This document shows positions 13,907 through 55,103 of a DNA stretch of 64,000 nt, piece by piece (positions within the stretch are counted from its first letter, which is position 1; every line of letters starts with the position of its first letter). The stretch lies in the sequence record PP047754; one strand, written 5' to 3'. The translations under genes were made by a program, and so were the position numbers. The stretch is from Escherichia phage KEP4. The notes under the pieces were generated by a model. It did not search any database and was not told the DNA's origin. It saw only the letters and a list, made by a program, of their open reading frames with translations.

Positions 13907-14074
13907 TTACTTTTTCTTCAGCTCGTCCAGTTTGGCTTCGATTTGTTCCAGGATGTCTTTACCCTTCTGAACAATCACTTCACCGTCTTGCGCGTGTTTA
14001 CGAAAGACCAGAGCGCCAGCTACGAAGCCGACAACAACGCCAGGAAGCGCGTACACCAACAGATCTTGTAACAT
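13907..14074 (-). CDS. small membrane protein (55 aa)
   Basis: Hand-found ORF below the 60-aa track cutoff: MLQDLLVYALPGVVVGFVAGALVFRKHAQDGEVIVQKGKDILEQIEAKLDELKKK, one transmembrane helix plus a charged tail. Confidence 0.4.
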   Translation of the reverse strand: MLQDLLVYALPGVVVGFVAGALVFRKHAQDGEVIVQKGKDILEQIEAKLDELKKK

Positions 14075-14110
14075 GATAATATCCTCACTTTATAGGTGAG
14101 GATATTTATA

Positions 14111-24702: not shown

Positions 24703-25152
24703 TTAGGCTTCTCTGGTCGCCAACCCTGGCTTAAACACCACCATTTCCTCAACGTTATTGGCACTCATAGAGGCTATAGAATCGAACCCTTTGTTGATAA
24801 GTTCTTTCACATTATCATGTATCTTACCAGGCTTTATCCCCAACTCTCGCATTTTATTTTCCCACACCGAAACATTGTTGGAATCTATTACAAGAGTCTT
24901 CTTGGCCTTGACACGAAATGCCATGACAATAGGTTCACCAGATTGACGATAGCGCACGGCATTTTCTGCGTAGATCTGTGCCTTTTCTGGATCCCCCGTC
25001 AGGTAAAACCCAGCACCCATCGTACCAGAGTCAGTCTGGCCAAATTTTTCAAAATCAAAGATATCGAATTCAACATTAGACCCATGATACAAAACGATAT
25101 TCGTAAAATCAGGTAACGTTGATTCGCGATAAAATTCTAGAAAGGTTTTCAT
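24703..25152 (-). CDS. hypothetical protein
   Basis: 149-aa ORF; no confident motif. Confidence 0.5.
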   Translation of the reverse strand: MKTFLEFYRESTLPDFTNIVLYHGSNVEFDIFDFEKFGQTDSGTMGAGFYLTGDPEKAQIYAENAVRYRQSGEPIVMAFRVKAKKTLVIDSNNVSVWENKMRELGIKPGKIHDNVKELINKGFDSIASMSANNVEEMVVFKPGLATREA

Positions 25153-25191
25153 AGATACCCCACACTGGTCGTATGGGGTATTTAGGATGGA

Positions 25192-27755: not shown

Positions 27756-27989
27756 TTAAGAAACGATAACTGTCGCATCAGAATTAATTGCCTTAACCCA
27801 ACCCACCGTCGGCGGGGTTAAAACGACCATATTTCCTTGATATATGATATGCGCGTTGTTACCCGTTGGAGCGCTGGGGCTATCACACAGATACACAGAA
27901 CCGTGAGTCACTTGAAGAGTTTTCAAAGATGTTCCGTCTGAGACTTGTGTCCATGTACTTGCGTTTGGTATGATCTTAGCGGTTGCCAT
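27756..27989 (-). CDS. hypothetical small protein
   Basis: 77-aa ORF. Confidence 0.4.
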   Translation of the reverse strand: MATAKIIPNASTWTQVSDGTSLKTLQVTHGSVYLCDSPSAPTGNNAHIIYQGNMVVLTPPTVGWVKAINSDATVIVS

Positions 27990-28034
27990 AATAGACCTCC
28001 TTTACAAGTCAGATCTATTTATTATAGACAAAAA

Positions 28035-28283: not shown

Positions 28284-28370
28284 ATTGCTTCAACTGGATT
28301 CGAACCAGTGACCTCAGGCACCTTGTTCTCTCGAAACTTTCCTGCGCTCTACCACTCGAGCTATGAAGCA
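28284..28370 (-). pseudogene. tRNA-like element without an anticodon stem (probable pseudo-tRNA)
   Basis: Reverse complement has a 7-bp acceptor stem (TGCTTCA/TGAAGCA), canonical D-arm GCTC-GAGTGGTA-GAGC and T-arm ACTGG-TTCGAAT-CCAGT, but a sliding 5-bp/7-nt/5-bp scan of the 35-nt middle segment finds no anticodon stem. Confidence 0.35.
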
Positions 28371-28373
28371 ATT

Positions 28374-28462
28374 TGGCGGAAGGTGAAGGATTCGAACCTT
28401 CGGGGGCTAAAAGCCCCACTCGATTAGCAGTCGAGTCCCTTAAACCTCTCGGGCAACCTTCC
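28374..28462 (-). tRNA. tRNA-Ser (anticodon GCT), type II with long variable arm, CCA encoded
   Basis: Reverse complement folds as GGAAGGT/ACCTTCC acceptor, anticodon stem CTCGA/TCGAG with loop CTGCTAA, variable arm GGGGCTTTTAGCCCCC, T-arm GAAGG-TTCGAAT-CCTTC, discriminator G plus CCA. Confidence 0.8.
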
Positions 28463-29002
28463 AATTTGGAGCGGGAGAGCAGTCAGCTACTGGCCAACCC
28501 CTATGGCTCCCGCGAAATTAGGACGGGCTTCACACCCGATTGTGCATTTGATCTGCCGTAGCCCAACTCCCCGCGCTTATCAGCGCCGATTGGTTAACTG
28601 GCACCAGTGCCTTCTGGTTCGATCTCCTGGAACTTTACAGGCTTCGTGCCCGACCATTTCTGGAAGTTGGGGCATCGTTTCCGATGTGGAGTCACCCCAT
28701 TTTATACACAGCTGGCTGCAACGCTTACTGTGTTTGGTCTACCACCACGTGCTGGGCCACGCTTGAGGACATCGGCCATCCTTCCTCAGCTAATCCACGC
28801 GGTGGTAGATTTTGTATCAGAGTGTCCGGTGTAGCTTTCCGTGAGGTGCGCACTACTGTAGCCTCTACACTCTGAATTTGGTGGGCGTTACTTTCGTCGG
28901 GTTCGGATTCCGTTCGGCTATTGGACGTCGCTCGAGAGAACTTGTCGTTCGCGTACTTCGTGCTTACTTGCTTTCGTTTCACACCCATTGTTTGTCGTCG
29001 GG

Positions 29003-29023
29003 CGGGGGATTCAAACCCCAATC
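29003..29023 (-). ncRNA. tRNA-like T-arm fragment
   Basis: GGGG-TTTGAAT-CCCC motif in reverse complement followed by an acceptor-like strand; no matching 5-prime half. Confidence 0.2.
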
Positions 29024-29130
29024 TTTAGTTTGTGTTTCTTCAAAGCTATCATATGTTCACTTTGAATACTAGACTCCCCTGGACATCAAAACAGAATCTC
29101 TATTCCATCCTGCAAGACCCGACATAATCC

Positions 29131-29206
29131 TGGCGACGATGGCAGGACTTGAACCTGCGACATACGGTTTAACAGACCGCCGTTCTACCGACTGAACTAC
29201 ATCGTC
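29131..29206 (-). tRNA. tRNA-Asn (anticodon GTT), CCA encoded
   Basis: 76-nt cloverleaf: acceptor GACGATG/CATCGTC, D-arm GTTC-AGTCGGTA-GAAC, anticodon stem GCGGT/ACCGT with loop CTGTTAA, T-arm GCAGG-TTCAAGT-CCTGC, discriminator G plus CCA. Confidence 0.85.
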
Positions 29207-29619
29207 ATTTATTCTTACTTTCGTAAACATTCTTTATTTTGCATGAAGACCCAGGGCAGGATCATAACGATCGTAAGTTTTTGGATGAGACCCGTTCTTG
29301 ATGCTCACCATCCGACCTTCCCAACTAGCGCGAATTCTGTTGGAAATCACCACCCAAATATTCTTCATAATATAGAACCCTTCAACTATGTTTATTCGCT
29401 TCGATCGCCCTTAATTGGGCGTCCGCGTCAGCTTTGGTGTCATGTGTCCCAAGAACTTTAGTCTTGGTGTGGTCAAGGACAACCCACTTATCGCCTCGCT
29501 TTTCAACAAACTCAACAATCTCTTTGTTGTCAGTAGCGAGGCCATCCCACTCAGTAAGAAACTCACCGAACGTTTTCATCATACTCACCAATTGTTTATT
29601 GAACAACTGGTTTATTTAG

Positions 29620-29695
29620 TGGTGACCCTGGCTGGACTTGAACCAGCGACCAATCGATTATGAGTCGACTGCTCTAACCACTGAGCTACGGGGCC
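29620..29695 (-). tRNA. tRNA-Met (anticodon CAT; elongator Met or lysidine-Ile type), CCA encoded
   Basis: 76-nt cloverleaf: acceptor GGCCCCG/CAGGGTC (one mismatch, one GU), D-arm GCTC-AGTGGTTA-GAGC, anticodon stem GTCGA/TCGAT with loop CTCATAA, T-arm GCTGG-TTCAAGT-CCAGC. Confidence 0.8.
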
Positions 29696-29758
29696 AAAAT
29701 TTGGCGGGGTCTGAGGATTTTCACCTCACCTGCTGGATTGGCCTCCAGCTGTTCTCTA

Positions 29759-29784
29759 TGAGGATTCGATGCGCGCGCATCGAA
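29759..29784. repeat. perfect 26-nt palindrome
   Basis: GGATTCGATGCGC|GCGCATCGAATCC is an exact reverse-complement palindrome. Confidence 0.6.
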
Positions 29785-30016
29785 TCCCTTAAACTATCGC
29801 CCCATAATTTATTGTGTGACCAACCAAGGTCTCTCAACCCTTTATCCCGTTTGTGCATGATCAGTTCATGCATGCCTGTTTGTGCGCCTCGCGGCAACGC
29901 GCTTCTGTGGGTCTTTGGCTTGCACCGTAGCCTCACCACAGGCGTTTATTTTTCCAGGGCTTTCCACTTGCAAGTCTTGACCATACAGGGATACGGGCTT
30001 GCAAGATCGGGTTGGA

Positions 30017-36904: not shown

Positions 36905-36950
36905 AACTAAATACCCCTAGATGACATGAATACATTTAGGGGTATTACAA

Positions 36951-39900
36951 ATGGCCAACAAACCAACACAGCCTCTTTTCCCTTTGGGTTTAGAAACTTC
37001 TGAGTCTTCGAACATAAAAGGCTTCAACAACTCCGGCACTATTGAGCATTCCCCTGGTGCCGTAATGACATTTCCTGAAGATACTGAAGTTACAGGTCTT
37101 CCATCTTCTGTGCGTTACAATCCTGATAGTGATGAATTTGAAGGTTATTACGAAAACGGTGGTTGGTTGTCTTTGGGTGGCGGCGGAATACGCTGGGAAA
37201 CGCTCCCTTACGCTCCCTCTAGCAATTTGTTAGAAGGTCGCGGCTATCTCATTAATAATACGACAGGGACTTCTACAGTGGTTCTCCCTTCCCCTACGCG
37301 CGTTGGTGATTCAGTTACAATTTGTGATGCCTATGGGAAATTCGCGACGTATCCATTGACTGTATCTCCAGCGGGAAATAACCTGTACGGCTCCACCGAA
37401 GATATGACGATATCCACCGATAACGTGTCGGCGACTTTCACTTGGTCTGGTGCCGAGCAGGGTTGGGTTGTTACATCTGGTGTTGGCCTCGGCCAAGGTC
37501 GTGTGTACAGTCGTGAGATTTTCACTCAAATTTTAGCATCTGAAACAAGTGCTGTCACTCTCAATACTCCACCAACAATCGTGGACGTGTATGCTGACGG
37601 AAAACGTCTTGCGGAATCCAAATATTCACTAGATGGGAATGTAATCACTTTCGACCCTTCTTTACCTGCCAGCACTGAATTGCAGGTAATAGAATATACT
37701 CCGATTCAGTTGGGCACTGGCGGCGGGGGTTCGGGCGCTTCTGCAATCACCTGGATTTACAATGGCGGATCCGCTATTGGTGGCGAAACCGAAATAACGC
37801 TAGATATCGTTGTAGATGATGTTCCGGCTATTGATATAAACGGGTCTCGTCAGTACAAAAATCTTGGATTCACGTTCGACCCATTGACGAGTAAAATCAC
37901 TCTGACGCAAGAACTGGAACCAGAAGATGAAGTTGTTGTGGTTATAAATGGGACACCAAACATTTATAACCAAATCGATCGTTCTTTACAGGAAGTTGCT
38001 CGCGCCTACAATTTTACAAATGCTCAAGTTATTTTGAGCAACGATTATACTTCTGTTCTGGATAATAAAGTCGTTATTTATGATACGACATCCCAACGTT
38101 CTTGGGGGATTCCATCTGGAATCCCAGCAGGTTCTACAGTGGTTTCCGTCAATGGGGATCAACTGAAGTACAAAAATGGATCAACTGAAACCACTGTTAC
38201 ATTGGTGAGTGTACCAGGTAGTGCAGAGAAATTGAAGAACGATCTGGCTTCAAACTCTGGTTCAGGTATGTTGAAAACTTCTAGAGGTGATACCGTAGAA
38301 GAAGAATTGACTTTCATTAATCAGAATATGGTCGTTCAAATTTCAGATTTCGCGAGTCTTAGAACTTTAGTGCCAGCCACAGCGGGTATCCGAGTCAAAT
38401 TGAAAGGTTATTATTCTGGTTCTGAAATCGGTGGCGGAGAATTCATTTCTGTCGCTGGAGATGCTGTTGATGATGCTGGGATGATTGCTCGAGTGTCAAG
38501 CAGCTTCTATTGGAAGAGAATTATCGACAAACACATTACTCCTGGCATGTATGGCATCAAAGGGAATCTTCCAGAAGATCCGGCAGTGAAACTGAACGCT
38601 ATGTTTACGGCTGCGGCTGCGGCTAACGCTTATGTCTTACTGAACGATGTCGACACTCTGGTCTGTAAAAGCCCTGTCGTGATTCCAGCACATTCATTAG
38701 TGTACGGCAACAAACGAACTATACTGAAACGTGATGCATCGTTGTCATATGCTAATGATTTCTTGACAATTATGAATGATTCATATGTCAAGGGGATCTA
38801 TGTTGATGGTAGCCGTTTAGATTCTCAGACTCCTCTAGAAGCAGTTTTGGTGCGTATCGCTGGGAATGTAACTATCCATAAGAGTGAGATCCGAAACAAT
38901 GCTGGCTATGGCGTTGTTGGTAACGCAGTCCCTGGTATTCGTATCACCAAGAACATTTTTTCCAACTTCGCCAAAGGTTGTGTAGCCATGTTTGGCGACG
39001 GAACAGCGACGAGTGATGATCTGCAAATTAATGATAACAGATTCTTTAACCTGGGCGCGGGAACCATTTATGTTGGCGGTTACTCAAACTTCCTTGTCGA
39101 CAAAAACGTCGGAAGAGGCACTTACGTGGGTTCTCCAGGAAACCGTCTGTATGTTGTGACCAATACTAACGGGACTATCACCCAAAGCGCTGGGCCAGAT
39201 TTTGGGCCATTGAAAACGGGTATGTTCTTTGTATTGCCTGGTGGTTCTGAACATATGATAACGGCGGTCAACAGCCTTACCAGTGTGACAGTAACCCCAC
39301 CACCGCCGTCGAACGCCACAGTTCGTGCAATCGCAGGGACAGGGGATCTTCTGGGCATCCAATCATGCTCCTACGGCACCATCAGCCGTAACAACCTGAC
39401 CGATTGCGTGACTTACGGAACTGGTGGAGGCACGATGGAGGGGAGCACTCTGGGTTGCAATTATGTCACTTGGGAAGACAACTTCATCCGCAACACAGGT
39501 AAGAACGGAATCAACGTCGGGCAATCAGGCGCTGGGGTTGCCACGTGTTCTATCCTGAGGAACACTCTGATACAGGTTGGTAACGGCGGTCAGGGTGTTG
39601 GCCCAGCGTATCTTCTGCCTTGGTTCGATACGCTAGGTATCGCTCTGTATCAGGGAAACCCAGGTTATATGGCGAATATGGACGTCAGTGATAACAACGT
39701 CTCTACATGGTCTGGCGATCTGAATGACGGCGCTGCTTGGTTTGGTATGAGCGGTTGTACGGAAGCCACTGTGACTTGTACAGGCAACAAATCTTCTGGT
39801 TATTCCGACGGCTATGTTCGTGGAGATATATTAGAAGTCACGTTGACAGGTTATGGTACAGGGGCGGCTGCGACTTCATTCGTTAGTGATGGTGAGTCTA

Positions 39901-40124
39901 TACAGATAACCGTTCAAACAGGTACTTCACCAACAGCTTCACCTTATTTTTCAGTGCGGAAGGCGATCCGCACCCGCCATCAACCGATGATAACGGCGCA
40001 GATCGTCACCACAACTGGGAACATGTCTCATTGTTGGGGTATGCAATCTAGTACAGCAGGAAACTGGATGGTGGGTCAGAATACAACTCCTTCGGGGCTT
40101 ACGACATATTACGCAAAAGGGTAA
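36951..40124 (+). CDS. tailspike protein 1 (right-handed parallel beta-helix)
   Basis: 1057-aa ORF; PbH1-type repeats (NNAGYGVVGNAVPGIRITKNIFSNF ... INDNRFFNLGAGTIYVGG); N-terminal module homologous to that of 42756..45536. Confidence 0.7.
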   Translation: MANKPTQPLFPLGLETSESSNIKGFNNSGTIEHSPGAVMTFPEDTEVTGLPSSVRYNPDSDEFEGYYENGGWLSLGGGGIRWETLPYAPSSNLLEGRGYLINNTTGTSTVVLPSPTRVGDSVTICDAYGKFATYPLTVSPAGNNLYGSTEDMTISTDNVSATFTWSGAEQGWVVTSGVGLGQGRVYSREIFTQILASETSAVTLNTPPTIVDVYADGKRLAESKYSLDGNVITFDPSLPASTELQVIEYTPIQLGTGGGGSGASAITWIYNGGSAIGGETEITLDIVVDDVPAIDINGSRQYKNLGFTFDPLTSKITLTQELEPEDEVVVVINGTPNIYNQIDRSLQEVARAYNFTNAQVILSNDYTSVLDNKVVIYDTTSQRSWGIPSGIPAGSTVVSVNGDQLKYKNGSTETTVTLVSVPGSAEKLKNDLASNSGSGMLKTSRGDTVEEELTFINQNMVVQISDFASLRTLVPATAGIRVKLKGYYSGSEIGGGEFISVAGDAVDDAGMIARVSSSFYWKRIIDKHITPGMYGIKGNLPEDPAVKLNAMFTAAAAANAYVLLNDVDTLVCKSPVVIPAHSLVYGNKRTILKRDASLSYANDFLTIMNDSYVKGIYVDGSRLDSQTPLEAVLVRIAGNVTIHKSEIRNNAGYGVVGNAVPGIRITKNIFSNFAKGCVAMFGDGTATSDDLQINDNRFFNLGAGTIYVGGYSNFLVDKNVGRGTYVGSPGNRLYVVTNTNGTITQSAGPDFGPLKTGMFFVLPGGSEHMITAVNSLTSVTVTPPPPSNATVRAIAGTGDLLGIQSCSYGTISRNNLTDCVTYGTGGGTMEGSTLGCNYVTWEDNFIRNTGKNGINVGQSGAGVATCSILRNTLIQVGNGGQGVGPAYLLPWFDTLGIALYQGNPGYMANMDVSDNNVSTWSGDLNDGAAWFGMSGCTEATVTCTGNKSSGYSDGYVRGDILEVTLTGYGTGAAATSFVSDGESIQITVQTGTSPTASPYFSVRKAIRTRHQPMITAQIVTTTGNMSHCWGMQSSTAGNWMVGQNTTPSGLTTYYAKG

Positions 40125-40174
40125 TATTGAATGCCTAAATACCCCATATTGGTCATCCTTTATGGGGTATTATC

Positions 40175-42715
40175 ATGATTTCTCAATTCAATCAACCACG
40201 CGGTTCCACTTCCATAGAAGTTAACAAACAATCTATCGCTCGAAATTTCGGTGTCAAAGAAGACGAAGTCGTTTATTTCACTGTCGGTATTGACCTCAGT
40301 GGATTTAAAGTAATTTATGATGAGTCTACCCAACGGGCTTATTCTCTCCCTTCCGGTATTGTTTCAGGGACAACTGCAATTAGTCTGGATGAAAGAGCTA
40401 TCCTCACTCATTCTTCTGGCTCTGTTGACCTTGGGGAATTAGCAGTAAGCCGCGAAGAATATGTGACTTTACCTGGTTCTTTTAATTTCGGCCATACCAT
40501 TAATGTGAAAAATGAACTTCTTGTTCACGATGATGAAAAATATCGATGGGATGGTTCTTTGCCAAAGGTAGTTGCCGCTGGTTCTACACCCGATAACTCA
40601 GGCGGTGTTGGCACAGGCGCGTGGATACCTGTTGGCATTAATTCTTTGTCTGGCGATGGTGGTTGGTCGCGTATCGGATCAGAATTTGGTAAATCTTTGA
40701 AAGAACATATTCAAAGTCTTCCCAGCTTGTCTGCTGTCAAATATATGACATTTGTTGAATACGCAGCCCTTTTGGCAGGAAACGACACGGTCAATCATGA
40801 CGTTAAAGTTCAGCAAGTTATGGATGAAGCGCATGAATTGAAATGCTCTGTTTATTTTCCAACAGGGCGTTATGTATTTGACACTGCAGTCAACGTTTGG
40901 ACATACGTTCGCGCTGTTTGGGGAGACGGTTCGGCCATTATCACCAGACGTTACGGAAGTCAGTTTAGTTCCCCTGGGGTGATAGATCCGGCGCATGATA
41001 CGCGTAAATTATTCCGAATGATGGGCGGAGCGTTGGGACCGCAGTCTATTCATGGTCTTATTATTGATGGTAATGCGCGTTCATTTACAGTCCCAAAACA
41101 TACTGATTCGGATCAAACTTATCCCAACCAAACTTATTATGGCGATGTTGAACCAGTCGATGTTGGCCCATATGTATTTGGACCGGAAGGAAATACTTCT
41201 GTTCCTGGCGCTTCTTACTATAACCATGATAAGAAAGAATCCGGTCTGACCGTTTTCGATATGGTGTTTAAAGATCAACCTGGTGGTGGTGTCGTAGGTA
41301 ATGGCCAAAACGTCCGTGTGTTTGGAAATCACTTTATGGGTTGGTATGACCATGCTGTGTATATCGCCGGAAGTAACTTTGCCTCGGAAGGAGACGGAAT
41401 TTTGTGTAGTGATATTGTTGTCACTGGTAACGTATTCCGAAATCGTATTAACAATCGAGGCAATGGAGCAGTCAAAGCACGATTTGGTGTTAATCGTTAC
41501 GCAGTTACAGGCAACTCCTTTGATATAGTTGACTATTGCATGGCATTTGAGATGGGTAATGGACCAGCGACTCAACCATTTGGCCAAATTGTTGTGGACG
41601 GCAACGTGTGCACTTCAGATGGTATGTTTATGCAAATCGGGAATGATATTGGGACTGAGTGGTTCTCGACCAATTGGCTCAAATCAATGACTATTACGAA
41701 TAACACAGCACGGTCGTTGGATCGCATTTTCTTGTTAGGGGTTAGCGGATCTTCCAGTTATATTATGGATGGGTTTTCTGTACAAGTGGCCAATAACCGA
41801 TTTTATGCGCCGTCATTTTTGTCCGTGTACACATTCATGACGAATACGGAATGGATGTTGAATAACAATATCGTGGAGATCACAGGAACTGCTATGATCA
41901 CAGGAGTTGATCAATCGAACATCAACAATTCACGGATATATCTTAAAGATAATGTTTTAGGAGTTCTCCGGACTGATGTTCAAGGTTATGCTGCAGTCAG
42001 TAATTTTCAACAAGTTGAAATTTCTAATAATACATTGCGTAATTTGTATTTCCAAATAGGAAGTTATACCACAGATCTGTTTATTAAAGGAAATACTGTT
42101 AACTACACATCTGCATTATCCAGTAAAAACTTGGCGCTCATGTATTCAAGTGCTGGGAATGGTTTGATAACAGCCGATATCAGTGATAATAAGTTTTTCG
42201 GTGGAGTTGGTCGTTGCCAACTTAAATTCAGTAGCAGCGCTTCTCTGGATTGTATTAACAACAAATTCTTTACAACTTCGGCACCGTTTTTGGAATTGCA
42301 TCCGGCTGGTTATACTCCACGTGTCGTTCGTATAAAGGACAATTTAATGCGTGGTGCAGGCGTATTGCTGGCTCCTCTTGCTTCTGGTGTTTCTTTGTCC
42401 GGTGCTGGGAATTATATGGTAATTTCGGGAAACACGTTGATGGCTAATAACCCATCTGCGCCTGAAAATATAACTTTGTATCAGGACACAGGTGCGCAGA
42501 GTTGGGTGGCCCATTATGAAACTATCAGATGTGTTCGAAATGATTTCAAATCTGCGCTGTTGGCGATTAATGCAACAGGGACAGCACAATCTGGTTTGAG
42601 TACTACCAATAAATTCTGGTTCGGGGATAACGCGACGATTAATACCACGGTTGTTTGTACTTATCCTGCTGGCAACAAAGCCAACACCGACATCACCCAG
42701 ACAGTTTCAGTTTAA
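40175..42715 (+). CDS. tailspike protein 2 (parallel beta-helix)
   Basis: 846-aa ORF; N-terminal about 90 aa alignable to 45591..47825; beta-helix repeats (GNHFMGWYDHAVYIAGSNF ... VVTGNVFRNRINNRGNGA). Confidence 0.7.
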   Translation: MISQFNQPRGSTSIEVNKQSIARNFGVKEDEVVYFTVGIDLSGFKVIYDESTQRAYSLPSGIVSGTTAISLDERAILTHSSGSVDLGELAVSREEYVTLPGSFNFGHTINVKNELLVHDDEKYRWDGSLPKVVAAGSTPDNSGGVGTGAWIPVGINSLSGDGGWSRIGSEFGKSLKEHIQSLPSLSAVKYMTFVEYAALLAGNDTVNHDVKVQQVMDEAHELKCSVYFPTGRYVFDTAVNVWTYVRAVWGDGSAIITRRYGSQFSSPGVIDPAHDTRKLFRMMGGALGPQSIHGLIIDGNARSFTVPKHTDSDQTYPNQTYYGDVEPVDVGPYVFGPEGNTSVPGASYYNHDKKESGLTVFDMVFKDQPGGGVVGNGQNVRVFGNHFMGWYDHAVYIAGSNFASEGDGILCSDIVVTGNVFRNRINNRGNGAVKARFGVNRYAVTGNSFDIVDYCMAFEMGNGPATQPFGQIVVDGNVCTSDGMFMQIGNDIGTEWFSTNWLKSMTITNNTARSLDRIFLLGVSGSSSYIMDGFSVQVANNRFYAPSFLSVYTFMTNTEWMLNNNIVEITGTAMITGVDQSNINNSRIYLKDNVLGVLRTDVQGYAAVSNFQQVEISNNTLRNLYFQIGSYTTDLFIKGNTVNYTSALSSKNLALMYSSAGNGLITADISDNKFFGGVGRCQLKFSSSASLDCINNKFFTTSAPFLELHPAGYTPRVVRIKDNLMRGAGVLLAPLASGVSLSGAGNYMVISGNTLMANNPSAPENITLYQDTGAQSWVAHYETIRCVRNDFKSALLAINATGTAQSGLSTTNKFWFGDNATINTTVVCTYPAGNKANTDITQTVSV

Positions 42716-42755
42716 ATTGAATTGAGCCTAAATACCCCATATTGGCAAATCCTTT

Positions 42756-45536
42756 ATGGGGTATTTTCAAATGACCAGAAATGTAGAAGAATTATTCGGC
42801 GGCGTAATCACAGCTCCCCACCAGATTCCTTTCACTTATAAATCAAGTGTCGGTGGAGAAACTTTCTTTTCTCTACCTTTCTATCCTGTCACTGGCGTAG
42901 TCACAATTAACGGCGGCATGCAAGTTCCGTTAGACAACTTCGAGATAGACGGGAATACGTTGAATCTCGGGCGCGCATTGTCCAAAGGCGATGTTGTGTA
43001 TTGCTTATTCGATAAAATTCTTTCACCAGAAGACACTGCCAAAGGCATCCGCATATACAAATTTCAAGCCGTGGGTGGAGAAACTGAATTCACGCCTGAC
43101 TTTACTTCTTATGGTGTACAGTCTCTTTATATCGGTGGCGAATACAAAACTCCTGATATAGAATATTCCTATAACAGCACGACAGGGAAAGTGTCTTTGC
43201 AAACTGCATTGACTGCAGGCGTTTGGGTAGTCGCTGAAATGTCTGTTAAACAACCGAATATCAGTCCGGCGTTTGATCGCAGTATTCAAGAAATTGCCCG
43301 TTCTGCTAATGTGAAAGACTCTGAAGTCATCGTTAGTACGGACACCATATCTTTATTGGATGGGAAGAAAGTTGTTTATGACGTAGCGGCGCAAACCAGT
43401 TATGGCTTACCAACCATTCCTGATGGTTCTGTCATTTCTTCTGTTAGTAATGGGCAACTTACTTATAATCCAGGTAATGTTGTAGTGGATTTGTTACCTT
43501 TAGAAGATTCATTTATTAATGTGATAAACACTCTGGGGCGCAATGATGGTGCCAAGTATATCGGAGAATGCCATTCTGTTGCTGATCTCAGGAATACTGA
43601 ACCCACTATGGATGGACAACGCATTATTCTTAAGCAACACACTGCGGGTACTCTTCTTGGTGGAGGGGTATTCCGTGCGTTAATTGATGGTACAGGAAAG
43701 ACTGATGATAACGGCACTGTGATCAAAACTGTTGGCGGCGCAGCCTGGTTACGTGTTAATGCTGATAGAGTTAACCCATTCATGTTTGGTGCTTTGGGCG
43801 GTTCTAATGATGATACTATTCCAGTACAATCTTGTGTGGACAGTGGTAAGGCCACACAATTAACTGGTGTACATTACGTTAGCAATATCCGGTTAAAATA
43901 TAATACGTCGTCTATTTATGGGTCTGGATTACATTACTCCAGGTTGCATCAGTTGCCTTCTGCTACTGGGAATTGTATTACCATAAAAGATACATGCTCC
44001 CTTATTGTATTAGACTCCTTTGGGGTATATGGCACAGGTGCACAACAAGGCACATCATTTACTGCGGGTACAACAGGTATCTATATAGAAACTCCTTCAG
44101 GTCTCTCAGCCGATTATCCGTTCCACACTACCGCAGACCCAAGACGCGACTTGTGTATTTCTAAGGTCCATATAGCAGGTTTTGATGAATATGGGTTAAA
44201 TATTGATAGTGGTAACTTTAGTGTTACTACAGATTCTCTTTTAGTCAACCACATCAATCAGGTGGGCGTCCGTTGTGCTACTACTGATTGGACTTGGACA
44301 AATATTCAGGTTAATACCTGCGGTAAACAATGTCTGGTTCTTGATGGTTGTGGTAATGGTCGTATTATTGGTGGTAAATTCATTTGGGCTAACTGGCAAC
44401 CTTATGGTACAGTAGGACAGTTCCCAGGCATTACTATTAATAATAGCCAGAATATGGTTATTAATGGTATTGAGGTACAAGATTGTGGCGGGAATGGCAT
44501 TGAGATTAGCGATTCATATTCAATTTCCATGAACGGATTGAACACCAATCGTAACGGCATCAACGCTAACAACACTTTCTACAACATCGTATTTAACAAA
44601 AGTGATGCAGTTATCAACGGATTCGTAGGACTCAATTATGCTGCGAATAGTGGTTCAGGTGCTAACTCTAGTGCAGGCAATTTTCAGTTCCTGTCTAATG
44701 ATTGCAGCGTCACCATTAATGGTGTGGTTGAGACTGGTTATATGGGCATTAACTTTATTGGTGATAACAATATTATCAACCCCACAAATTCCGAACTGAG
44801 CATTAACGGATTGGTTAATTATTCCAAGACTGGTTTGCAAACCATGAACGAGACCCCTACATTTGATGGTGTTAGCACTACACCTGTTTATGTAAGTGTC
44901 CCATCTTCTGTAGGGCAAGTAAATGGTCTGAGACTATCACAAGCCAACAAAGATAAATTACTGTACTCAAGAACAGCAGGTCCAGAAGGTATTACCATGG
45001 CTGCTGTTGTAGTACCTACCATATCTGGAGCTGAAGTATTTAACTTCATGGCCATTGGTTCAGGGTTTAGTGATACATCCAACAGTCTTCATCTTCAATT
45101 AGTTATAGACGCTTCTGGAAAACAAACAATTGCTTTGCTATTGGGGGGCGATGGTACAACCCAAATTTTATCTGGGGATTTACCTAACGACCTTAAACTA
45201 CAAAGTGGTGTGCCATATCATATAGCTATTGGTGCTAAACCTGGATATTTCTGGTGGAGTATTCTTAATATTCAGACGGGTAAGAGAATCAGACGGTCAT
45301 TCCGAGGCGCTTATTTAGCTGTACCATTTAATTCTATATTCGGATTAACTTCTTCATTAACATTCTTCTCGGATAGCAATGCTGGTGGGGATGCCTGTTC
45401 TGGTGTAGGTGCTAAAGTGTATGTTGGTATGTTCTCTTCTGAGAATGATTATGTAGCTTCACGGTACTACAACCTGATTAATCCTGTAGACCCTAATAAG
45501 TTAATTAGTTACCGTATATTGGATTCTTCTATTTAA
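42756..45536 (+). CDS. tailspike protein 3 (parallel beta-helix)
   Basis: 926-aa ORF; shares the FDRSIQEIARSANVKDSEVIVSTD...VVYD... module with tailspike 1; Asn/Gly-rich beta-helix repeats. Confidence 0.7.
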   Translation: MGYFQMTRNVEELFGGVITAPHQIPFTYKSSVGGETFFSLPFYPVTGVVTINGGMQVPLDNFEIDGNTLNLGRALSKGDVVYCLFDKILSPEDTAKGIRIYKFQAVGGETEFTPDFTSYGVQSLYIGGEYKTPDIEYSYNSTTGKVSLQTALTAGVWVVAEMSVKQPNISPAFDRSIQEIARSANVKDSEVIVSTDTISLLDGKKVVYDVAAQTSYGLPTIPDGSVISSVSNGQLTYNPGNVVVDLLPLEDSFINVINTLGRNDGAKYIGECHSVADLRNTEPTMDGQRIILKQHTAGTLLGGGVFRALIDGTGKTDDNGTVIKTVGGAAWLRVNADRVNPFMFGALGGSNDDTIPVQSCVDSGKATQLTGVHYVSNIRLKYNTSSIYGSGLHYSRLHQLPSATGNCITIKDTCSLIVLDSFGVYGTGAQQGTSFTAGTTGIYIETPSGLSADYPFHTTADPRRDLCISKVHIAGFDEYGLNIDSGNFSVTTDSLLVNHINQVGVRCATTDWTWTNIQVNTCGKQCLVLDGCGNGRIIGGKFIWANWQPYGTVGQFPGITINNSQNMVINGIEVQDCGGNGIEISDSYSISMNGLNTNRNGINANNTFYNIVFNKSDAVINGFVGLNYAANSGSGANSSAGNFQFLSNDCSVTINGVVETGYMGINFIGDNNIINPTNSELSINGLVNYSKTGLQTMNETPTFDGVSTTPVYVSVPSSVGQVNGLRLSQANKDKLLYSRTAGPEGITMAAVVVPTISGAEVFNFMAIGSGFSDTSNSLHLQLVIDASGKQTIALLLGGDGTTQILSGDLPNDLKLQSGVPYHIAIGAKPGYFWWSILNIQTGKRIRRSFRGAYLAVPFNSIFGLTSSLTFFSDSNAGGDACSGVGAKVYVGMFSSENDYVASRYYNLINPVDPNKLISYRILDSSI

Positions 45537-45590
45537 AAATATACCCCTCTTCGGAGGGTATTTACTAGAGAAAAACAGGAGATTCTTATT

Positions 45591-47825
45591 ATGAATCCGC
45601 AATTTGCTCAACCAAAAGGTTCTACTTCAAAAGAATCGAATAAAGATAGCATCGCCCGTAAATTTGGGTGCAAAAAGTCGGAAGTCGTTTATGCGAAATC
45701 AGGACAGTCCTTGTCTGGTTATAAGGTTATTTATGACAAGGAAACACAGAGAGCGTATTCCTTGCCTGTAGATATTCCAGCAGGAACCACGGTTATTAGC
45801 CTTAGCGCCAGTGCTCTGCTTGTACACTCTGGGGGTTCTGTAGACCTGGGCGAACTAGCTTCCCAACGCAATGAATATAATGTATTACCTGGTTCTTTTA
45901 CTACTGGTGCAATAGTATCCACAAAGAATGATGTACTTACCCACAATGGTATCCAGTATCGTTGGAATGGTTCATTACCTAAAGTTGTACCTCAGAACTC
46001 TTTACCATCCAGTGATGATAATTGGATTGGCTTGGGTGCTTCTTATCTGAAGGAACAGCTTAACAGTACCAGTGGTGCATCCATGGTAGTACTGGCTAAT
46101 GGCAAAACCATTGAAGAAGAATTTGCCGAAGAAGCTGCATGGCAGAACCAAGAGAATATGGTGAGAACCGTTATTCCTAATGTTTATCACCATATCCGTG
46201 GCGTTCAGCGTCACTCTGGTAAAAACTTAGCATGGTCTGCTCCAGACGTTGCTATTGATAAACTTAACCCTACGGATACCGTCTTCTACCGTATGCCCCA
46301 GATTGTTAAAACTGGTGATGGTACTCTGATGATTTTCTGTAATGAGTTGCATGGTAACAATACAGATATTGGTGCTACTCCAGATCAGCAATGTAATATC
46401 GTTATGAAATACTCCATTGATAATGGGTGGTCTTGGTCGGCTAAGGTAGTGGTAGCTAACTTTGGGGCTACGTATCAGAACGGTGAGATTGCTGCTGTGT
46501 ATAACCCAGCAGATGGTCGGGTATACTGTTACTTTACTTCCTGCAAAGGCCAGTTGGGTTGGGGATACTCACAGCCAGGCAATGACCCTAATACATCATC
46601 CCAGATATATGTTACCTACTGTGATGCGGAAGCTCCTACTATATGGCGTACACCAGCTAACCTTACTGCTACCCTTAAGCCAGCAACGGCAGATTTTATC
46701 TGGACTTCACCAACTAAACCAGTTGTTTTACCGGATGGTAAGATGGCAATGATTGTGTCTACCGTCACTGGTTCACGGGTTGATTCTTTCCTTACCATCA
46801 TGAAGTATGACATTAAGTACAGCATGGACTACGTACTTAGTTCCGAAGAATCTGGTGGGGAAGTCGGACTGAACCTTTTGCCGGATGGTCGTATGGTGAT
46901 GAACTCTCGTGCTTACCACACCACAGACCTTAAAGGGCTTCAGAAATTCTATATCAGTGATCATCAGTTTAAGAACTGGCAGCACTTATCTGATTTAGTT
47001 ACATCGGATAGTAAGGGTGACCTGGTTCCTATTTTTGATGGGGTTAATGGTGTTCTTACTTGGGCGTTTACTTGTGCTAATGGTGTAGGTGATAATTCTA
47101 TTGGTCGTACTAACTACCGAGTATGGATTAGTCGTGACCTAGTTACTTGGGGGTTAGCTCCTACTGGGGATATCAACACAAGTGATTCTGTTGGGTACAT
47201 CGCATCAATGCCTGGTGGTGATGATGGTTATGTAATCTCTACATCTGAATCAGGTGGTTTTGGTGGTATTTGGTTTACTCAATGGAATGCTAAGTATATC
47301 CAGAACAGAAACTACAACCGCTATCACAAAGAGTTGCGAGAATTAGAGTCAGTAGATGAAACAGCAATGCTCGCATCCGGTGCTATTCCTAACTACTCTT
47401 TTTACGTAAACAAAGACTCCAACCTAATTAACTTCAACCGCAACGGTACTCCAGTTAAGATTCAGCAGTTGGGGGTTAGTCAGAATGCTGTTGATAAGTA
47501 CACTACAACTCAGACCCTAGCATCTATTCCTGTAGATGGTGTTGATATTGTATTAGTCACTGGTTCTGGTACTACTCTTACCCTTAGTGGGTTTAGCGGT
47601 GGATATATGGGCCAGCGTGTGACAGTTATCTCTGATTCATCTGGTGGTGGGGTGGTGCTTAAACGTGCTGATACAACATTGCCTACTGTAACGGACAGAT
47701 TCCACTTTAATGTGGCAGGAGCCTTTACTGCTTTGAGGGTAGACTATGCAACTAAGATGATGGCTACTTTAGTTAAGACTCCATCTGGTTGGTTCACGGA
47801 AAGTATTGCTAACGTAACAATCTAA
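45591..47825 (+). CDS. tailspike protein 4 with putative sialidase/BNR-like domain
   Basis: 744-aa ORF; N-terminus homologous to tailspike 2; one canonical Asp-box SIDNGWSW and one degenerate (SRDLVTW). Confidence 0.65.
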   Translation: MNPQFAQPKGSTSKESNKDSIARKFGCKKSEVVYAKSGQSLSGYKVIYDKETQRAYSLPVDIPAGTTVISLSASALLVHSGGSVDLGELASQRNEYNVLPGSFTTGAIVSTKNDVLTHNGIQYRWNGSLPKVVPQNSLPSSDDNWIGLGASYLKEQLNSTSGASMVVLANGKTIEEEFAEEAAWQNQENMVRTVIPNVYHHIRGVQRHSGKNLAWSAPDVAIDKLNPTDTVFYRMPQIVKTGDGTLMIFCNELHGNNTDIGATPDQQCNIVMKYSIDNGWSWSAKVVVANFGATYQNGEIAAVYNPADGRVYCYFTSCKGQLGWGYSQPGNDPNTSSQIYVTYCDAEAPTIWRTPANLTATLKPATADFIWTSPTKPVVLPDGKMAMIVSTVTGSRVDSFLTIMKYDIKYSMDYVLSSEESGGEVGLNLLPDGRMVMNSRAYHTTDLKGLQKFYISDHQFKNWQHLSDLVTSDSKGDLVPIFDGVNGVLTWAFTCANGVGDNSIGRTNYRVWISRDLVTWGLAPTGDINTSDSVGYIASMPGGDDGYVISTSESGGFGGIWFTQWNAKYIQNRNYNRYHKELRELESVDETAMLASGAIPNYSFYVNKDSNLINFNRNGTPVKIQQLGVSQNAVDKYTTTQTLASIPVDGVDIVLVTGSGTTLTLSGFSGGYMGQRVTVISDSSGGGVVLKRADTTLPTVTDRFHFNVAGAFTALRVDYATKMMATLVKTPSGWFTESIANVTI

Positions 47826-47831
47826 AATACA

Positions 47832-47858
47832 AGCCCCCAATAAGGGGGCTTTCTTTTG
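47832..47858 (+). terminator. rho-independent terminator
   Basis: AGCCCCC-AATAA-GGGGGCT hairpin followed by TTCTTTTG, just after the tailspike 4 stop. Confidence 0.7.
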
Positions 47859-47955
47859 CTATGTCTCGTTAACCTGACAGGAACTGGAAGTTCAAAACTA
47901 TCTATTGGCTGTATACTAAATATCTCTATAAAATGGCACTCGATGGAGCATCAAA

Positions 47956-54400: not shown

Positions 54401-54461
54401 TTATCAATTCCTCAAAAGAATTAATGATTGACTAAATACCTTCAAAATTGAGGGTAAAGTC

Positions 54462-55103
54462 ATGGCTACTTCAAAATATTTCAACTATACAGCACACCAA
54501 GGTACTCAGAAATTAATTGACGACTTGGTGGTCGAGATGATACAACTACGTGGGATTGACGTCAAGTATATTCCACGTTCCATCGTTGAAAAATACCCAA
54601 TTTTAAACGAGGCTGAACATAAATTCGACCAGGCGTTCGATATCGAAGTATACATGCAAGATTACCAAGGCTTTAACACCCAAATGTGGGAGAAGTTTGG
54701 CGGTATTCAATTACAAGATGAAGTGACGTTCACCATTGCTCGTCGCCGTTTTTCGGAAGTGATTGGTAATGGGCCAGGACTTGAGCAGATGCCTCAAGAA
54801 GGTGATTTGATATACCTCCCAATGGCGAACAAGATATTCAAAGTGAATAACCCGAATAACGACGAAGAATTTATGCAATTCGGTAAATGGTACACATATT
54901 CCTTACCGTGCACGTTGTTCCAATATGGTAATGAAGATTTTGATACTGGTGTATCTGAAATTGACGACATCGATAAACGTTTACAAGATCTAGACGGCGA
55001 TGGTGTCTATAAAGATGCCAGTCTACAGACAGATAACCAATTTGCGGACGAAATAGAGAAAGATCTTTCGCCCAATAAAATGAAGATAGACTTCGGGGAA
55101 TAA
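54462..55103 (+). CDS. putative neck protein (gp14 position)
   Basis: 213-aa ORF with CTAAATACC motif 22 nt upstream; assignment by synteny only. Confidence 0.45.
   Translation: MATSKYFNYTAHQGTQKLIDDLVVEMIQLRGIDVKYIPRSIVEKYPILNEAEHKFDQAFDIEVYMQDYQGFNTQMWEKFGGIQLQDEVTFTIARRRFSEVIGNGPGLEQMPQEGDLIYLPMANKIFKVNNPNNDEEFMQFGKWYTYSLPCTLFQYGNEDFDTGVSEIDDIDKRLQDLDGDGVYKDASLQTDNQFADEIEKDLSPNKMKIDFGE

Follow-up and report, generated by a model that had tools for sequence, protein, structure and literature searches.

The window analyzed here, the whole 64,000-nucleotide stretch of the Escherichia phage KEP4 record PP047754, comes from a Kuttervirus (Ackermannviridae), a Vi01/CBA120-like phage with four tailspike genes. 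On the basis of homology and annotation the genes that adjoin the four junctions J0 to J3 are tailspikes: A (TSP4-type) follows J0, B (TSP3-type) follows J1, C (TSP2-type) follows J2 and D follows J3. At the tailspike junctions the upstream stop codon and the sequence motif CTAAATA are separated by just 10 to 14 nt. Tailspikes A and B show no homology at their 3′ ends beyond a short ATTGAAT spacer.

J0, J1 and J2 lie on the plus strand and share one anatomy: the motif CTAAATAcCcc supplies the 5′ arm of a hairpin, a GGGG ribosome site supplies its 3′ arm and the ATG follows 7 to 9 nt on. J0 (36907..36946), upstream of tailspike A, carries CTAAATA at 36907-36913 and a 14-bp stem with arms at 36910-36923 and 36933-36946, GGGG at 36939-36942 and the ATG at 36951. 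J1 (40133..40175), upstream of tailspike B, carries CTAAATA at 40135-40141; its outer stem pairs 40138-40148 with 40161-40171 and is extended by an inner GG/CC pair, with GGGG at 40164-40167 and the ATG at 40175. In J2 (42726..42769), upstream of tailspike C, CTAAATA occupies 42728-42734, the stem pairs approximately 42731-42741 with 42755-42765 and GGGG lies at 42758-42761; the true ATG of tailspike C is likely that at 42771, an in-frame ATG at 42756 falling within the 3′ arm. Independent annotators of the phage Marshall record labeled these GGGG runs as RBS.

A preliminary description of this DNA had reported near-identical hairpins between the tailspike genes, with a late-promoter-like motif within the 5′ arm. 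The hairpins are real and were correctly placed, and CTAAATA does overlap the arm, by 3 to 4 nt in J0, J1, J2 and a further copy near 25 kb. J1 and J2 have in common an exact 20-nt block, GCCTAAATACCCCATATTGG (40133-40152 and 42726-42745), and a second block of 21 nt, ATCCTTTATGGGGTATT(A/T)TCA, at 95 % identity (40155-40175 and 42749-42769). Their difference, said to be confined to the loop (TC versus CAA), extends to one base after the stem. Hairpins at the first and fourth tailspike junctions had been called related: J0 is indeed an element of the same kind, which shares the CTAAATACCCC...GGGGTAT frame but has an inner stem and loop of its own, whereas J3 is related by arm sequence only.

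The recurrence of the ATACCCC...GGGGTAT hairpin pattern in the window exceeds chance, the pattern ATACCCC-N3-33-GGGGTAT being found four times in the window and 0 times in each of 100 shuffles. The predicted RNA hairpins reach -19.1 kcal/mol for J0 (z -5.9), -19.6 kcal/mol for J1 (z -3.8) and -19.9 kcal/mol for J2 (z -3.9). An Rfam search of the junctions matched no family at any of them.

The hairpin at J3 (45541..45561, plus strand), after tailspike C, reads ATACCCCTC-TTCG-GAGGGTAT followed by TTTAC. It is without CTAAATA, its predicted RNA hairpin is weaker (-9.4 kcal/mol, z -0.1) and it leaves uncovered the AGGAG ribosome site of tailspike D at 45578-45582; blocks conserved in other phages begin here at 45538 or 45543. 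Tailspike D is followed on the plus strand by a canonical intrinsic terminator (47831..47858; AAGCCCCC-AATAA-GGGGGCTT then TCTTTTG), which is part of the variable module. Conserved sequence sets in again at 47905, 10 nt ahead of the ACTAAATA of a vrlC-like gene, and the only sigma-70-like match in the cluster junctions, a weak one (9/12), is found at 47905-47934 upstream of that gene; J0 to J3 have none.

The element is not restricted to the tailspike junctions, since a fifth full copy is present on the minus strand (25152..25185; hairpin 25155-25185), where CTAAATACCCCATAC-GACCA-GTGTGGGGTAT is followed by CT and an ATG (start 25152). This copy, missed in the preliminary description, precedes a gene for 149 aa with an ADP-ribosyltransferase domain, and its hairpin is predicted at -18.7 kcal/mol (z -4.8). 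The same design recurs in three looser versions with other arms. At 14072..14110 (minus strand) TATAAATA overlaps ATATCCTCAC-CTATAAA-GTGAGGATAT, followed by TATC and the ATG of a 55-aa ORF; the hairpin is predicted at -14.4 kcal/mol, and for its ECML-4 orthologue, gp091, the ddG is -11.2 kcal/mol. Another version, at 54431..54464 (plus strand), precedes the neck (gp14-like) gene, with ACTAAATA followed by CCTTCA-AAAT-TGAGGG, TAAAGTC and the ATG (ddG -8.8 kcal/mol); this copy is kept across genera, one lineage having an alternative arm pair. A looser example at 27987..28023 (minus strand), AATAAATAGATCT...AGGTCTATT, buries AGGAGG ahead of an ATG at 27989 with a ddG of -7.9 kcal/mol, but is not borne out by the opening-energy test. 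Arm pairs vary (ATACCCCATA/TATGGGGTAT, ATATCCTCAC/GTGAGGATAT, AAATACCTCTGCA/TGCGGAGGTATTT, TACCTTCA/TGAGGGTA) and the topology is constant. Each copy has a co-directional gene upstream, permitting read-through.

For genome-wide counts of motif and hairpin we used ECML-4, a 97 %-identical phage. Such a hairpin, defined by the loss of at least 10 kcal/mol of structure on removing the first 12 nt, is found at 8 of 27 TAAATA-preceded genes, the endolysin gene among them, compared to 1.9 % of distance-matched controls (Fisher 4e-8). Sixteen of the 27 lack a strong hairpin of this type (ddG weaker than -5 kcal/mol). Taken over the 27 motif genes together, a Mann-Whitney test gives only a marginal result (p 0.07), the class being bimodal, which makes the tail (Fisher) test the informative one. 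The hairpin design is a probable genome-wide control element, present in about seven non-tailspike places and not specific to tailspikes.

The motif CTAAATAcCcc was reportedly described by Adriaenssens et al. in 2012 as conserved in Viunalikevirus. Exact CTAAATACCCC occurs in four copies in the window, each directly 5′ of a start codon, and ECML-4 has six copies of CTAAATACC. Five copies of the motif have been reported in phage EspM4VN, in a study that gives CTAAATAcCcc as a linear regulatory motif (PMC7283392). In ECML-4, 17 of the 24 CTAAATA lie 10-55 nt 5′ of a same-strand start compared to 0.7 expected, and the genes that follow CTAAATA are mostly structural or late genes. Putative late promoters that have no hairpin read CTAAATA(T/C)NTC..., without CCCC. 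In the ECML-4 annotation gp122 is a late sigma factor, gp021 a late promoter transcriptional regulator and gp152 a sliding clamp; these gp55-like, gp33-like and clamp genes are located beyond the window. We infer that CTAAATA acts as a late promoter of the gp55 type and corresponds, in the Ackermannviridae, to T4 TATAAATA. The authors of the CBA120 paper report that they did not identify the late promoter, promoters go unmentioned in the 2024 family review and we found no Ackermannviridae transcriptome, transcript-end, start-site or translation study in the searchable literature.

Burial of the ribosome site was assessed as opening energy, the predicted cost of opening positions -15 to +3. This energy is 17-21 kcal/mol in read-through RNA versus 5-8 kcal/mol in RNA beginning at the putative late start, the hairpin-less late genes having values of 3-8 kcal/mol. 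We relied on opening energies because weak alternative pairings keep the per-base unpaired probability of GGGG low (<0.1) in both RNA forms; in late-start RNA, GGGG can still enter a weak alternative hairpin. The J0 element is kept in all 18 of the Ackermannviridae loci that include the J0 junction. The stems of J1 and J2 do not differ between genera whose neighboring coding DNA shares only about 70 % identity, while loop, tail and upstream spacer do. Because these orthologous stems never vary (zero variation in 14 sequences), they have no covariation support and the covariation count says nothing either way. Pairing in the endolysin hairpin is kept through three wobble-preserving changes, and the endolysin, 25-kb and neck copies, the three non-tailspike copies compared across relatives, are conserved in place. 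Each arm could be conserved for a reason of its own, which would leave the 10-14 bp of complementarity unexplained.

From this anatomy, conservation and non-random recurrence we infer promoter activity, a start site and a translational effect, and we consider the element to be probably a composite expression signal for the downstream gene, under control of the T4 lysozyme type. It would consist of a gp55-type late promoter (CTAAATA), an anti-ribosome-site arm that starts inside the promoter (ATACCCC...) and a complementary arm that holds GGGG as the Shine-Dalgarno sequence, 5-9 nt ahead of the ATG. RNA entering from upstream would have both arms and fold into a hairpin of about -19 kcal/mol, leaving the tailspike poorly translated; the hairpin may also delay or partly halt RNA polymerase and shield the upstream message at its 3′ end. 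Assuming T4 spacing, RNA from the late promoter would start about 6 nt past TAAATA, beyond the CCCC, and without the 5′ arm it could not form the hairpin and would be translatable. As RNA from its own late promoter alone would escape the hairpin, the tailspikes and about seven further genes, including the endolysin gene, would be expressed essentially only from it. Strong purifying selection would explain why conserved sequence begins with this unit behind each variable receptor-binding module, and the unit would serve passively in the homology arm for module exchange. The early-versus-late rationale of T4 gene e is weaker here because the tailspikes follow genes that are late too, and there is less read-through RNA to gate because most relatives already have a canonical terminator 5′ of J1 and J2.

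That terminator bears directly on the suggestion, made in the preliminary description, that the stems are terminator-like. If so, the hairpins would primarily be terminators, attenuators or 3′-end protectors of the upstream tailspike, with the promoter motif merely adjoining, which we regard as unlikely. The stems are indeed stable and GC-cored, J2 is followed by TATTTTC, and the hairpins at J3 and 47831 are terminator-like. The window also has no other terminator between tailspikes A, B and C, so that J1 and J2, which here are without a separate terminator, may bring about partial termination. A simple scan for short-loop GC-rich hairpins with a T-rich run, however, reports J3 (45545-45558) and 47831-47851 and not J0, J1 or J2, which fail because of their long loops (9-13 nt) and the absence of a T-run (2-4 T in the next 8 nt). 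Furthermore, the separate canonical terminator of most Kutterviruses, AAAAACCCCGCTTCGGCGGGGTTCTTATT, lies 30-40 nt upstream of the J1/J2 element, making a terminator role doubtful: the element is retained even where transcription would already have ended. Its 3′ arm is the ribosome site, and genes such as those for the endolysin and the neck are preceded by the same design.

The hairpin could instead be present in all tailspike mRNAs, these starting further upstream, and act as a constitutive 5′ stabilizer and translational damper that sets a low, balanced output. It is known that 5′ hairpins can stabilize mRNAs, and GGGG is partly paired even in the truncated RNA. The branched complex requires its tailspikes in modest, matched numbers (PMC11414711). 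Against this reading, a structure of -19 kcal/mol over the sole ribosome site would nearly silence essential virion genes. No conserved promoter-like sequence lies upstream of the element, where the 10-14 nt spacer and the preceding coding DNA differ between phages, and the distribution of CTAAATA is itself strongly promoter-like. We hold this constitutive role to be very improbable.

The preliminary description had also proposed that the repeats could drive cassette exchange and that junctions be compared across related phages. Homology to more than 150 GenBank phages begins at 40135 in J1 and at 42722 or 42728 in J2, so the conserved edges do fall on the element: at least 147 phages have homology starting at 40135, and about 190, including Klebsiella and Serratia phages, at 42722 or 42728. 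The right-hand junctions in relatives, however, are found anywhere from the stop codon to the motif edge, in terminator, spacer or motif, scattering over about 70-190 nt upstream and never entering the element itself. That the repeats are chiefly recombination cassettes, a late-promoter counterpart of the PeSLs of T4-like phages offering a right-hand crossover site for swaps of receptor-binding modules from one tailspike position or one phage to another, is rather improbable in our judgment, even though conserved blocks begin exactly at the motif in these phages. In most Kutterviruses J1 and J2 form a direct repeat of 96-102 nt with 88-93 % identity, spanning terminator, spacer, promoter and hairpin, whereas the exact repeat in the window is just 20 nt. 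PeSLs, repeated composites of promoter and stem-loop that border replaced or inserted DNA (PMC2839356, PMC4122927), offer a precedent, and the same binding module has been found at different positions (TSP3 and TSP4, TSP1 and TSP4) in a study that names a left-hand site only, GTTAVSL (PMC8432352). Against a driving role, the J0 element sits inside a fully conserved block and about seven other copies likewise do not adjoin variable DNA, while scatter outside the element is expected of purifying selection and not of a crossover site. Exchange between positions through the hairpins was examined in 11 Kuttervirus loci, and the sole cross-position event, a TSP4-TSP3 fusion in locus L005, used homology within the coding sequence. 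Since a homologous crossover is scarless, a conservation edge is no proof of crossover use. We favor the view that the elements belong to the conserved right-hand homology arm; a causal role in exchange is at most possible. We likewise give only a small chance to the idea that the intergenic cassettes, made up of late promoter, ribosome-site hairpin and, in phages that have it, terminator, are the Ackermannviridae counterpart of PeSLs, kept near-identical along the tailspike junctions by supplying the right-hand crossover site for TSP4/TSP3/TSP1 module hopping within and between phages; if true, a single element would set both expression and host-range evolvability.

Returning to the composite expression signal, the 'cCcc' half of a long-listed Viunalikevirus motif would be the anti-ribosome-site arm of a hairpin. 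On this view about 10 genes per genome would be translated only off their own late promoter, among them three tailspike genes, the endolysin gene and the gene with an ADP-ribosyltransferase domain. Ackermannviridae phages have been engineered through tailspike swaps (PMC11414711, PMC9965104). For such work the stretch from CTAAATA to the ATG would be best left undisturbed, and the natural junctions, tolerated between the stop codon and CTAAATA, offer a guide.

Among known systems, Rho-independent terminators resemble these elements in having a GC-cored hairpin in an intergenic gap, and the hairpins at J3 and 47831 fit that class. J0, J1 and J2 differ from it in their large loops and lack of a T-run, and they end 3-6 nt 5′ of the next ATG and contain its ribosome site. 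The likeness to PeSLs lies in a short repeated promoter and stem-loop, found at borders of replaced DNA in the case of J1, J2 and J3 but not J0, and in the repeat of most Kutterviruses, which includes a true terminator together with the promoter. PeSLs, however, have early promoters of the sigma-70 type and lie beside small accessory genes of hyperplastic regions, whereas the KEP4 elements carry a late-type motif, bury a ribosome site and are mostly away from variable borders. The PeSL combination of early promoter and stem-loop terminator is not what the window holds: the motif is late-type, and a terminator is found only in the longer cassette of relatives. The Viunalikevirus motif CTAAATAcCcc, with a handful of copies per genome, is exactly the KEP4 sequence; its listing is linear (PMC7283392), whereas here its 'cCcc' half is the hairpin arm opposite the ribosome site. 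The closest system is that of T4 e, soc, 49 and I-TevI, where the 5′ strand of a hairpin contains a late promoter and the 3′ strand sequesters the Shine-Dalgarno sequence or the AUG: long transcripts fold up and stay silent, late-promoter transcripts are without the 5′ strand and, in gene e, the hairpin cuts translation about 100-fold (PMC3014915). In KEP4 the late-promoter motif likewise overlaps the hairpin 5′ strand (J0 to J2 and the 25-kb copy) and the Shine-Dalgarno pairs as part of the 3′ strand. Homologues of gp55, gp33 and gp45 are present in the phage group according to the ECML-4 annotation, and the relatives' endolysin gene bears the same device. The Ackermannviridae class differs in its motif, CTAAATA(cCcc) and not TATAAATA, and in its predicted extent, with about 10 genes per genome, including three consecutive tailspikes whose upstream neighbors are late as well.

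The region matches Kuttervirus phages (Ackermannviridae, Vi01/CBA120 group), the best match being Escherichia phage ECML-4 (97.6 % identical across 84 % of the tailspike cluster). Four plus-strand ORFs, 36951-40124 (tailspike A, TSP4), 40175-42715 (B, TSP3), 42771-45536 (C, TSP2) and 45591-47825 (D, TSP1), are followed by a vrlC-like gene; they correspond to the annotated tailspike or tail-fibre genes of relatives and carry Beta_helix or Tail_spike_N domains. For tailspike C the ORF caller mechanically picks an in-frame ATG at 42756, inside the 3′ arm of a hairpin, while 42771, the choice of annotators, has proper ribosome-site spacing. The TSP3 position, one intact 846-aa ORF in the window, is annotated in ECML-4 (L024 38349-40831) as a 627-aa gene and a separate 91-aa ORF; a gene disruption or a sequencing error in ECML-4 may account for this.

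The hairpins upstream of tailspikes B (J1) and C (J2) had been described as near-identical, and this observation is real and non-random. They have in common a 20-nt exact block (40133-40152; 42726-42745) and a second block of 21 nt at 95 % identity (40155-40175; 42749-42769), the differences being mainly the loop (TC versus CAA) plus one base after the stem. The kinship that the preliminary description extended to the tailspike 1 and 4 junctions, based on ATACCCC...GGGGTAT, holds for the outer frame of J0, upstream of tailspike A (36907-36946), where CTAAATACCCC...GGGGTAT encloses a different inner stem. At J3, between tailspikes C and D (45541-45561), it extends to arm sequence only, this shorter hairpin having a TTCG loop and lacking CTAAATA. 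The predicted RNA hairpins J0, J1 and J2 reach -19.1, -19.6 and -19.9 kcal/mol (z -5.9, -3.8 and -3.9) and J3 is weaker (-9.4 kcal/mol, z -0.1). The 64 kb contain four matches to the pattern ATACCCC-N3-33-GGGGTAT, compared with none in 100 shuffles. The fourth, on the minus strand (25155-25185), is a full copy located immediately upstream of a 149-aa gene, and thus the element is not tailspike-specific. This gene (24703-25152, minus strand) has an ADP-ribosyltransferase domain (ART-PolyVal, PF18760, E 2e-10); a late-expressed ADP-ribosyltransferase recalls T4 Alt, which is packaged and injected.

All full copies have the same anatomy. The 5′ arm opens with the last 3-4 bases of CTAAATA followed by CCCC, in agreement with the earlier proposal that a late-promoter motif lies in this arm. 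The 3′ arm ends 3-6 nt before the ATG and contains a GGGG at a distance of 5-9 nt from the start codon, the sole Shine-Dalgarno-like sequence available there. In phage Marshall, independent annotation assigns the ribosome-binding site of each of the three genes to exactly this GGGG. CTAAATA differs from T4 TATAAATA at one position and has a promoter-like distribution: of its 24 copies in the complete ECML-4 genome, 17 precede an annotated start on the same strand by 10-55 nt (0.7 expected). The genes so preceded in ECML-4 code mostly for virion components (baseplate, sheath, tube, scaffold, neck, tailspikes, vrlC), and the annotation of this phage includes a late sigma factor, a gp33-like regulator and a sliding clamp. 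The element is built on an already listed motif, CTAAATAcCcc, which reportedly originates from Adriaenssens et al. 2012. The motif is listed for the phage group, with five copies in phage EspM4VN (PMC7283392). The CBA120 genome paper states that the late promoter was not identified, and we found no description of CTAAATAcCcc as a hairpin in the searchable literature.

Elements of this design are found throughout the genome. In ECML-4, TAAATA lies 14-50 nt upstream of 27 genes; the leader of each was folded from the motif to the ATG and refolded without its first 12 nt, mimicking a transcript that starts ~6 nt after the motif. This removal resulted in a loss of at least 10 kcal/mol in 8 of the 27 leaders compared with 1.9 % of control sites, which are distance-matched pseudo-sites at the other 171 ECML-4 genes and not mutually independent (Fisher 4e-8). 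The eight genes are three tailspikes, the endolysin, gp159, gp105, gp091 and gp198; neck protein gp183 and gp109 come next (-8 to -9 kcal/mol). Arm pairs differ in sequence (ATACCCCATA/TATGGGGTAT, ATATCCTCAC/GTGAGGATAT, AAATACCTCTGCA/TGCGGAGGTATTT, TACCTTCA/TGAGGGTA) and have one topology in common, with a 5′ arm that begins within the motif or immediately downstream of it and a 3′ arm that contains the ribosome site. Late-type promoters without a hairpin, such as ACTAAATATCTC before vrlC, are also without CCCC; the 'cCcc' of the published motif is therefore part of the hairpin and not of the promoter. Looser copies are found in the window at 14072-14110 and 27987-28023 (minus strand) and at 54431-54464 (plus strand). 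The stretch at ~28300-30000 holds only short, poorly supported ORFs and corresponds to the ECML-4 tRNA cluster (Ile, Ser, Tyr, Asn, Met; 75.6-76.9 kb), in which gp198, a small gene between tRNAs, also has a CTAAATA-plus-hairpin leader.

Conservation was assessed in 18 Ackermannviridae loci from IMG/VR, including LIMEstone1; those whose TSP2 N-terminal protein showed only 61-74 % identity were assumed to represent other genera. Wherever a locus covers the junction, the element precedes TSP4 and TSP2; in Kutterviruses it also precedes TSP3. While the 10-bp outer stem of J1/J2 is invariant in 14 sequences, the loop, 3′ tail and upstream spacer vary, and the adjoining coding DNA is only ~70 % identical between genera. 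Being invariant, the tailspike stems offer no covariation evidence, and the case for structure therefore rests on hairpin stability, the length of complementarity and the existence of paralogues with the same topology and different sequence.

The preliminary description regarded the stem as terminator-like, which is probably wrong. A simple terminator scan picked up J3 and a hairpin at 47831, with no match at J0, J1 or J2. Furthermore, in most Kutterviruses the J1/J2 gaps are ~100 nt long and consist, in order, of the stop codon, a canonical terminator AAAAACCCCGCTTCGGCGGGGTTCTTATT, a ~27-nt spacer and the CTAAATACCCC hairpin; thus, the element is kept even where a separate terminator is in place. 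The short form found in the window, and in Marshall at J1, is devoid of terminator and spacer, with only 10-14 nt from stop codon to motif, and the hairpins in KEP4 may also do some terminating or 3′-end protecting. The function of the stem is probably to sequester the ribosome site, with a predicted effect on translation. Opening positions -15 to +3 is predicted to cost 17-21 kcal/mol in RNA with 60 nt of upstream sequence; with a start 6-8 nt past the motif, the cost falls to 5-8 kcal/mol, about the range of hairpin-less late genes (3-8 kcal/mol). Opening is incomplete in the late-start RNA, since a weak alternative hairpin can still take up the GGGG.

The repeated elements had also been proposed to drive tailspike cassette exchange, with module borders expected to coincide with them. 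The borders do coincide: in 60 evenly sampled GenBank records, alignments start at query base 351 (window 40135) in 48 at J1 and at query base 345 or 351 in 56 at J2. When the window was compared with relatives' loci by blastn, conserved blocks started at 40135 (the C of CTAAATA), 42722 or 42728, 45538 or 45543, and 47905, the last being 10 nt before ACTAAATA of vrlC; left edges inside genes were located at 38002, ~40590-40635, ~43480-43510 and ~45740. This coincidence has a simpler explanation: conservation covers the whole unit from the late promoter to the N-terminal anchor domain, and the preceding DNA back to the domain border is replaceable. Reading it as a recombination role goes too far, since neither J0 nor the non-tailspike copies lie at borders and the sole cross-position event in 11 Kuttervirus loci (the window and ten fetched) used coding homology, fusing TSP4 to a TSP3 binding module in the three-tailspike phage L005. 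The 1024-aa 'TSP4' of this phage (6589-9663) consists of a TSP4 N-terminus and the common TSP3 binding module, 96-99 % identical to tsp3 from nt 235 or 357 to the end, including the downstream junction; engineered tailspike outcomes match this type of fusion (PMC11414711). Visible junctions in relatives are scattered over the terminator (L001-L003, L006, L007, L014), the spacer (L009) and the motif (window, L004, L008), and none among the loci compared enters the element. Two loci, L006 and L014, contain extra DNA: in both, ~90 nt of unrelated AT-rich sequence (~7608-7700), absent from other Kutterviruses, separates the tsp4 stop from the canonical terminator. Between the tsp4 stop and J1, L008 (7610-7804) holds a fossil of a J3-type hairpin, ribosome site and ~120 nt of the tsp1 5′ end, the trace of an imported binding module whose former downstream neighbour came with it. 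In most Kutterviruses, J1 and J2 form a 96-102-nt direct repeat of 88-93 % identity; the exact repeat of the window is only 20 nt. Only a left-hand site, GTTAVSL, is identified in the literature for swaps between positions (PMC8432352), and PeSL elements provide a precedent (PMC2839356, PMC4122927). Given the long repeat and the single identified site, a PeSL-like contribution of the elements to module exchange is therefore possible.

In T4, the late promoters of genes e, soc, 49 and I-TevI lie within the 5′ strand of a structure sequestering the ribosome site, and translation from long transcripts is down about 100-fold (PMC3014915). The elements described here follow the same logic, with the promoter motif in the 5′ arm and the ribosome site buried. 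By analogy, with a putative promoter, predicted start sites and a predicted translational effect, they belong to this class of phage control devices, which is used unusually widely in Ackermannviridae. In the endolysin leader, outside the window, TTTAAATA precedes a 13-bp hairpin that buries GGAGG (L023 = ECML-4, NC_025446, 1560-1602; L027-L045, ~338-403), an arrangement kept in all Ackermannviridae genera with three wobble-preserving stem substitutions. Because the endolysin carries the device and all genera conserve it, the parallel with T4 lysozyme gene e is close: the enzyme itself is not the T4 one, but the logic of its leader is the same.
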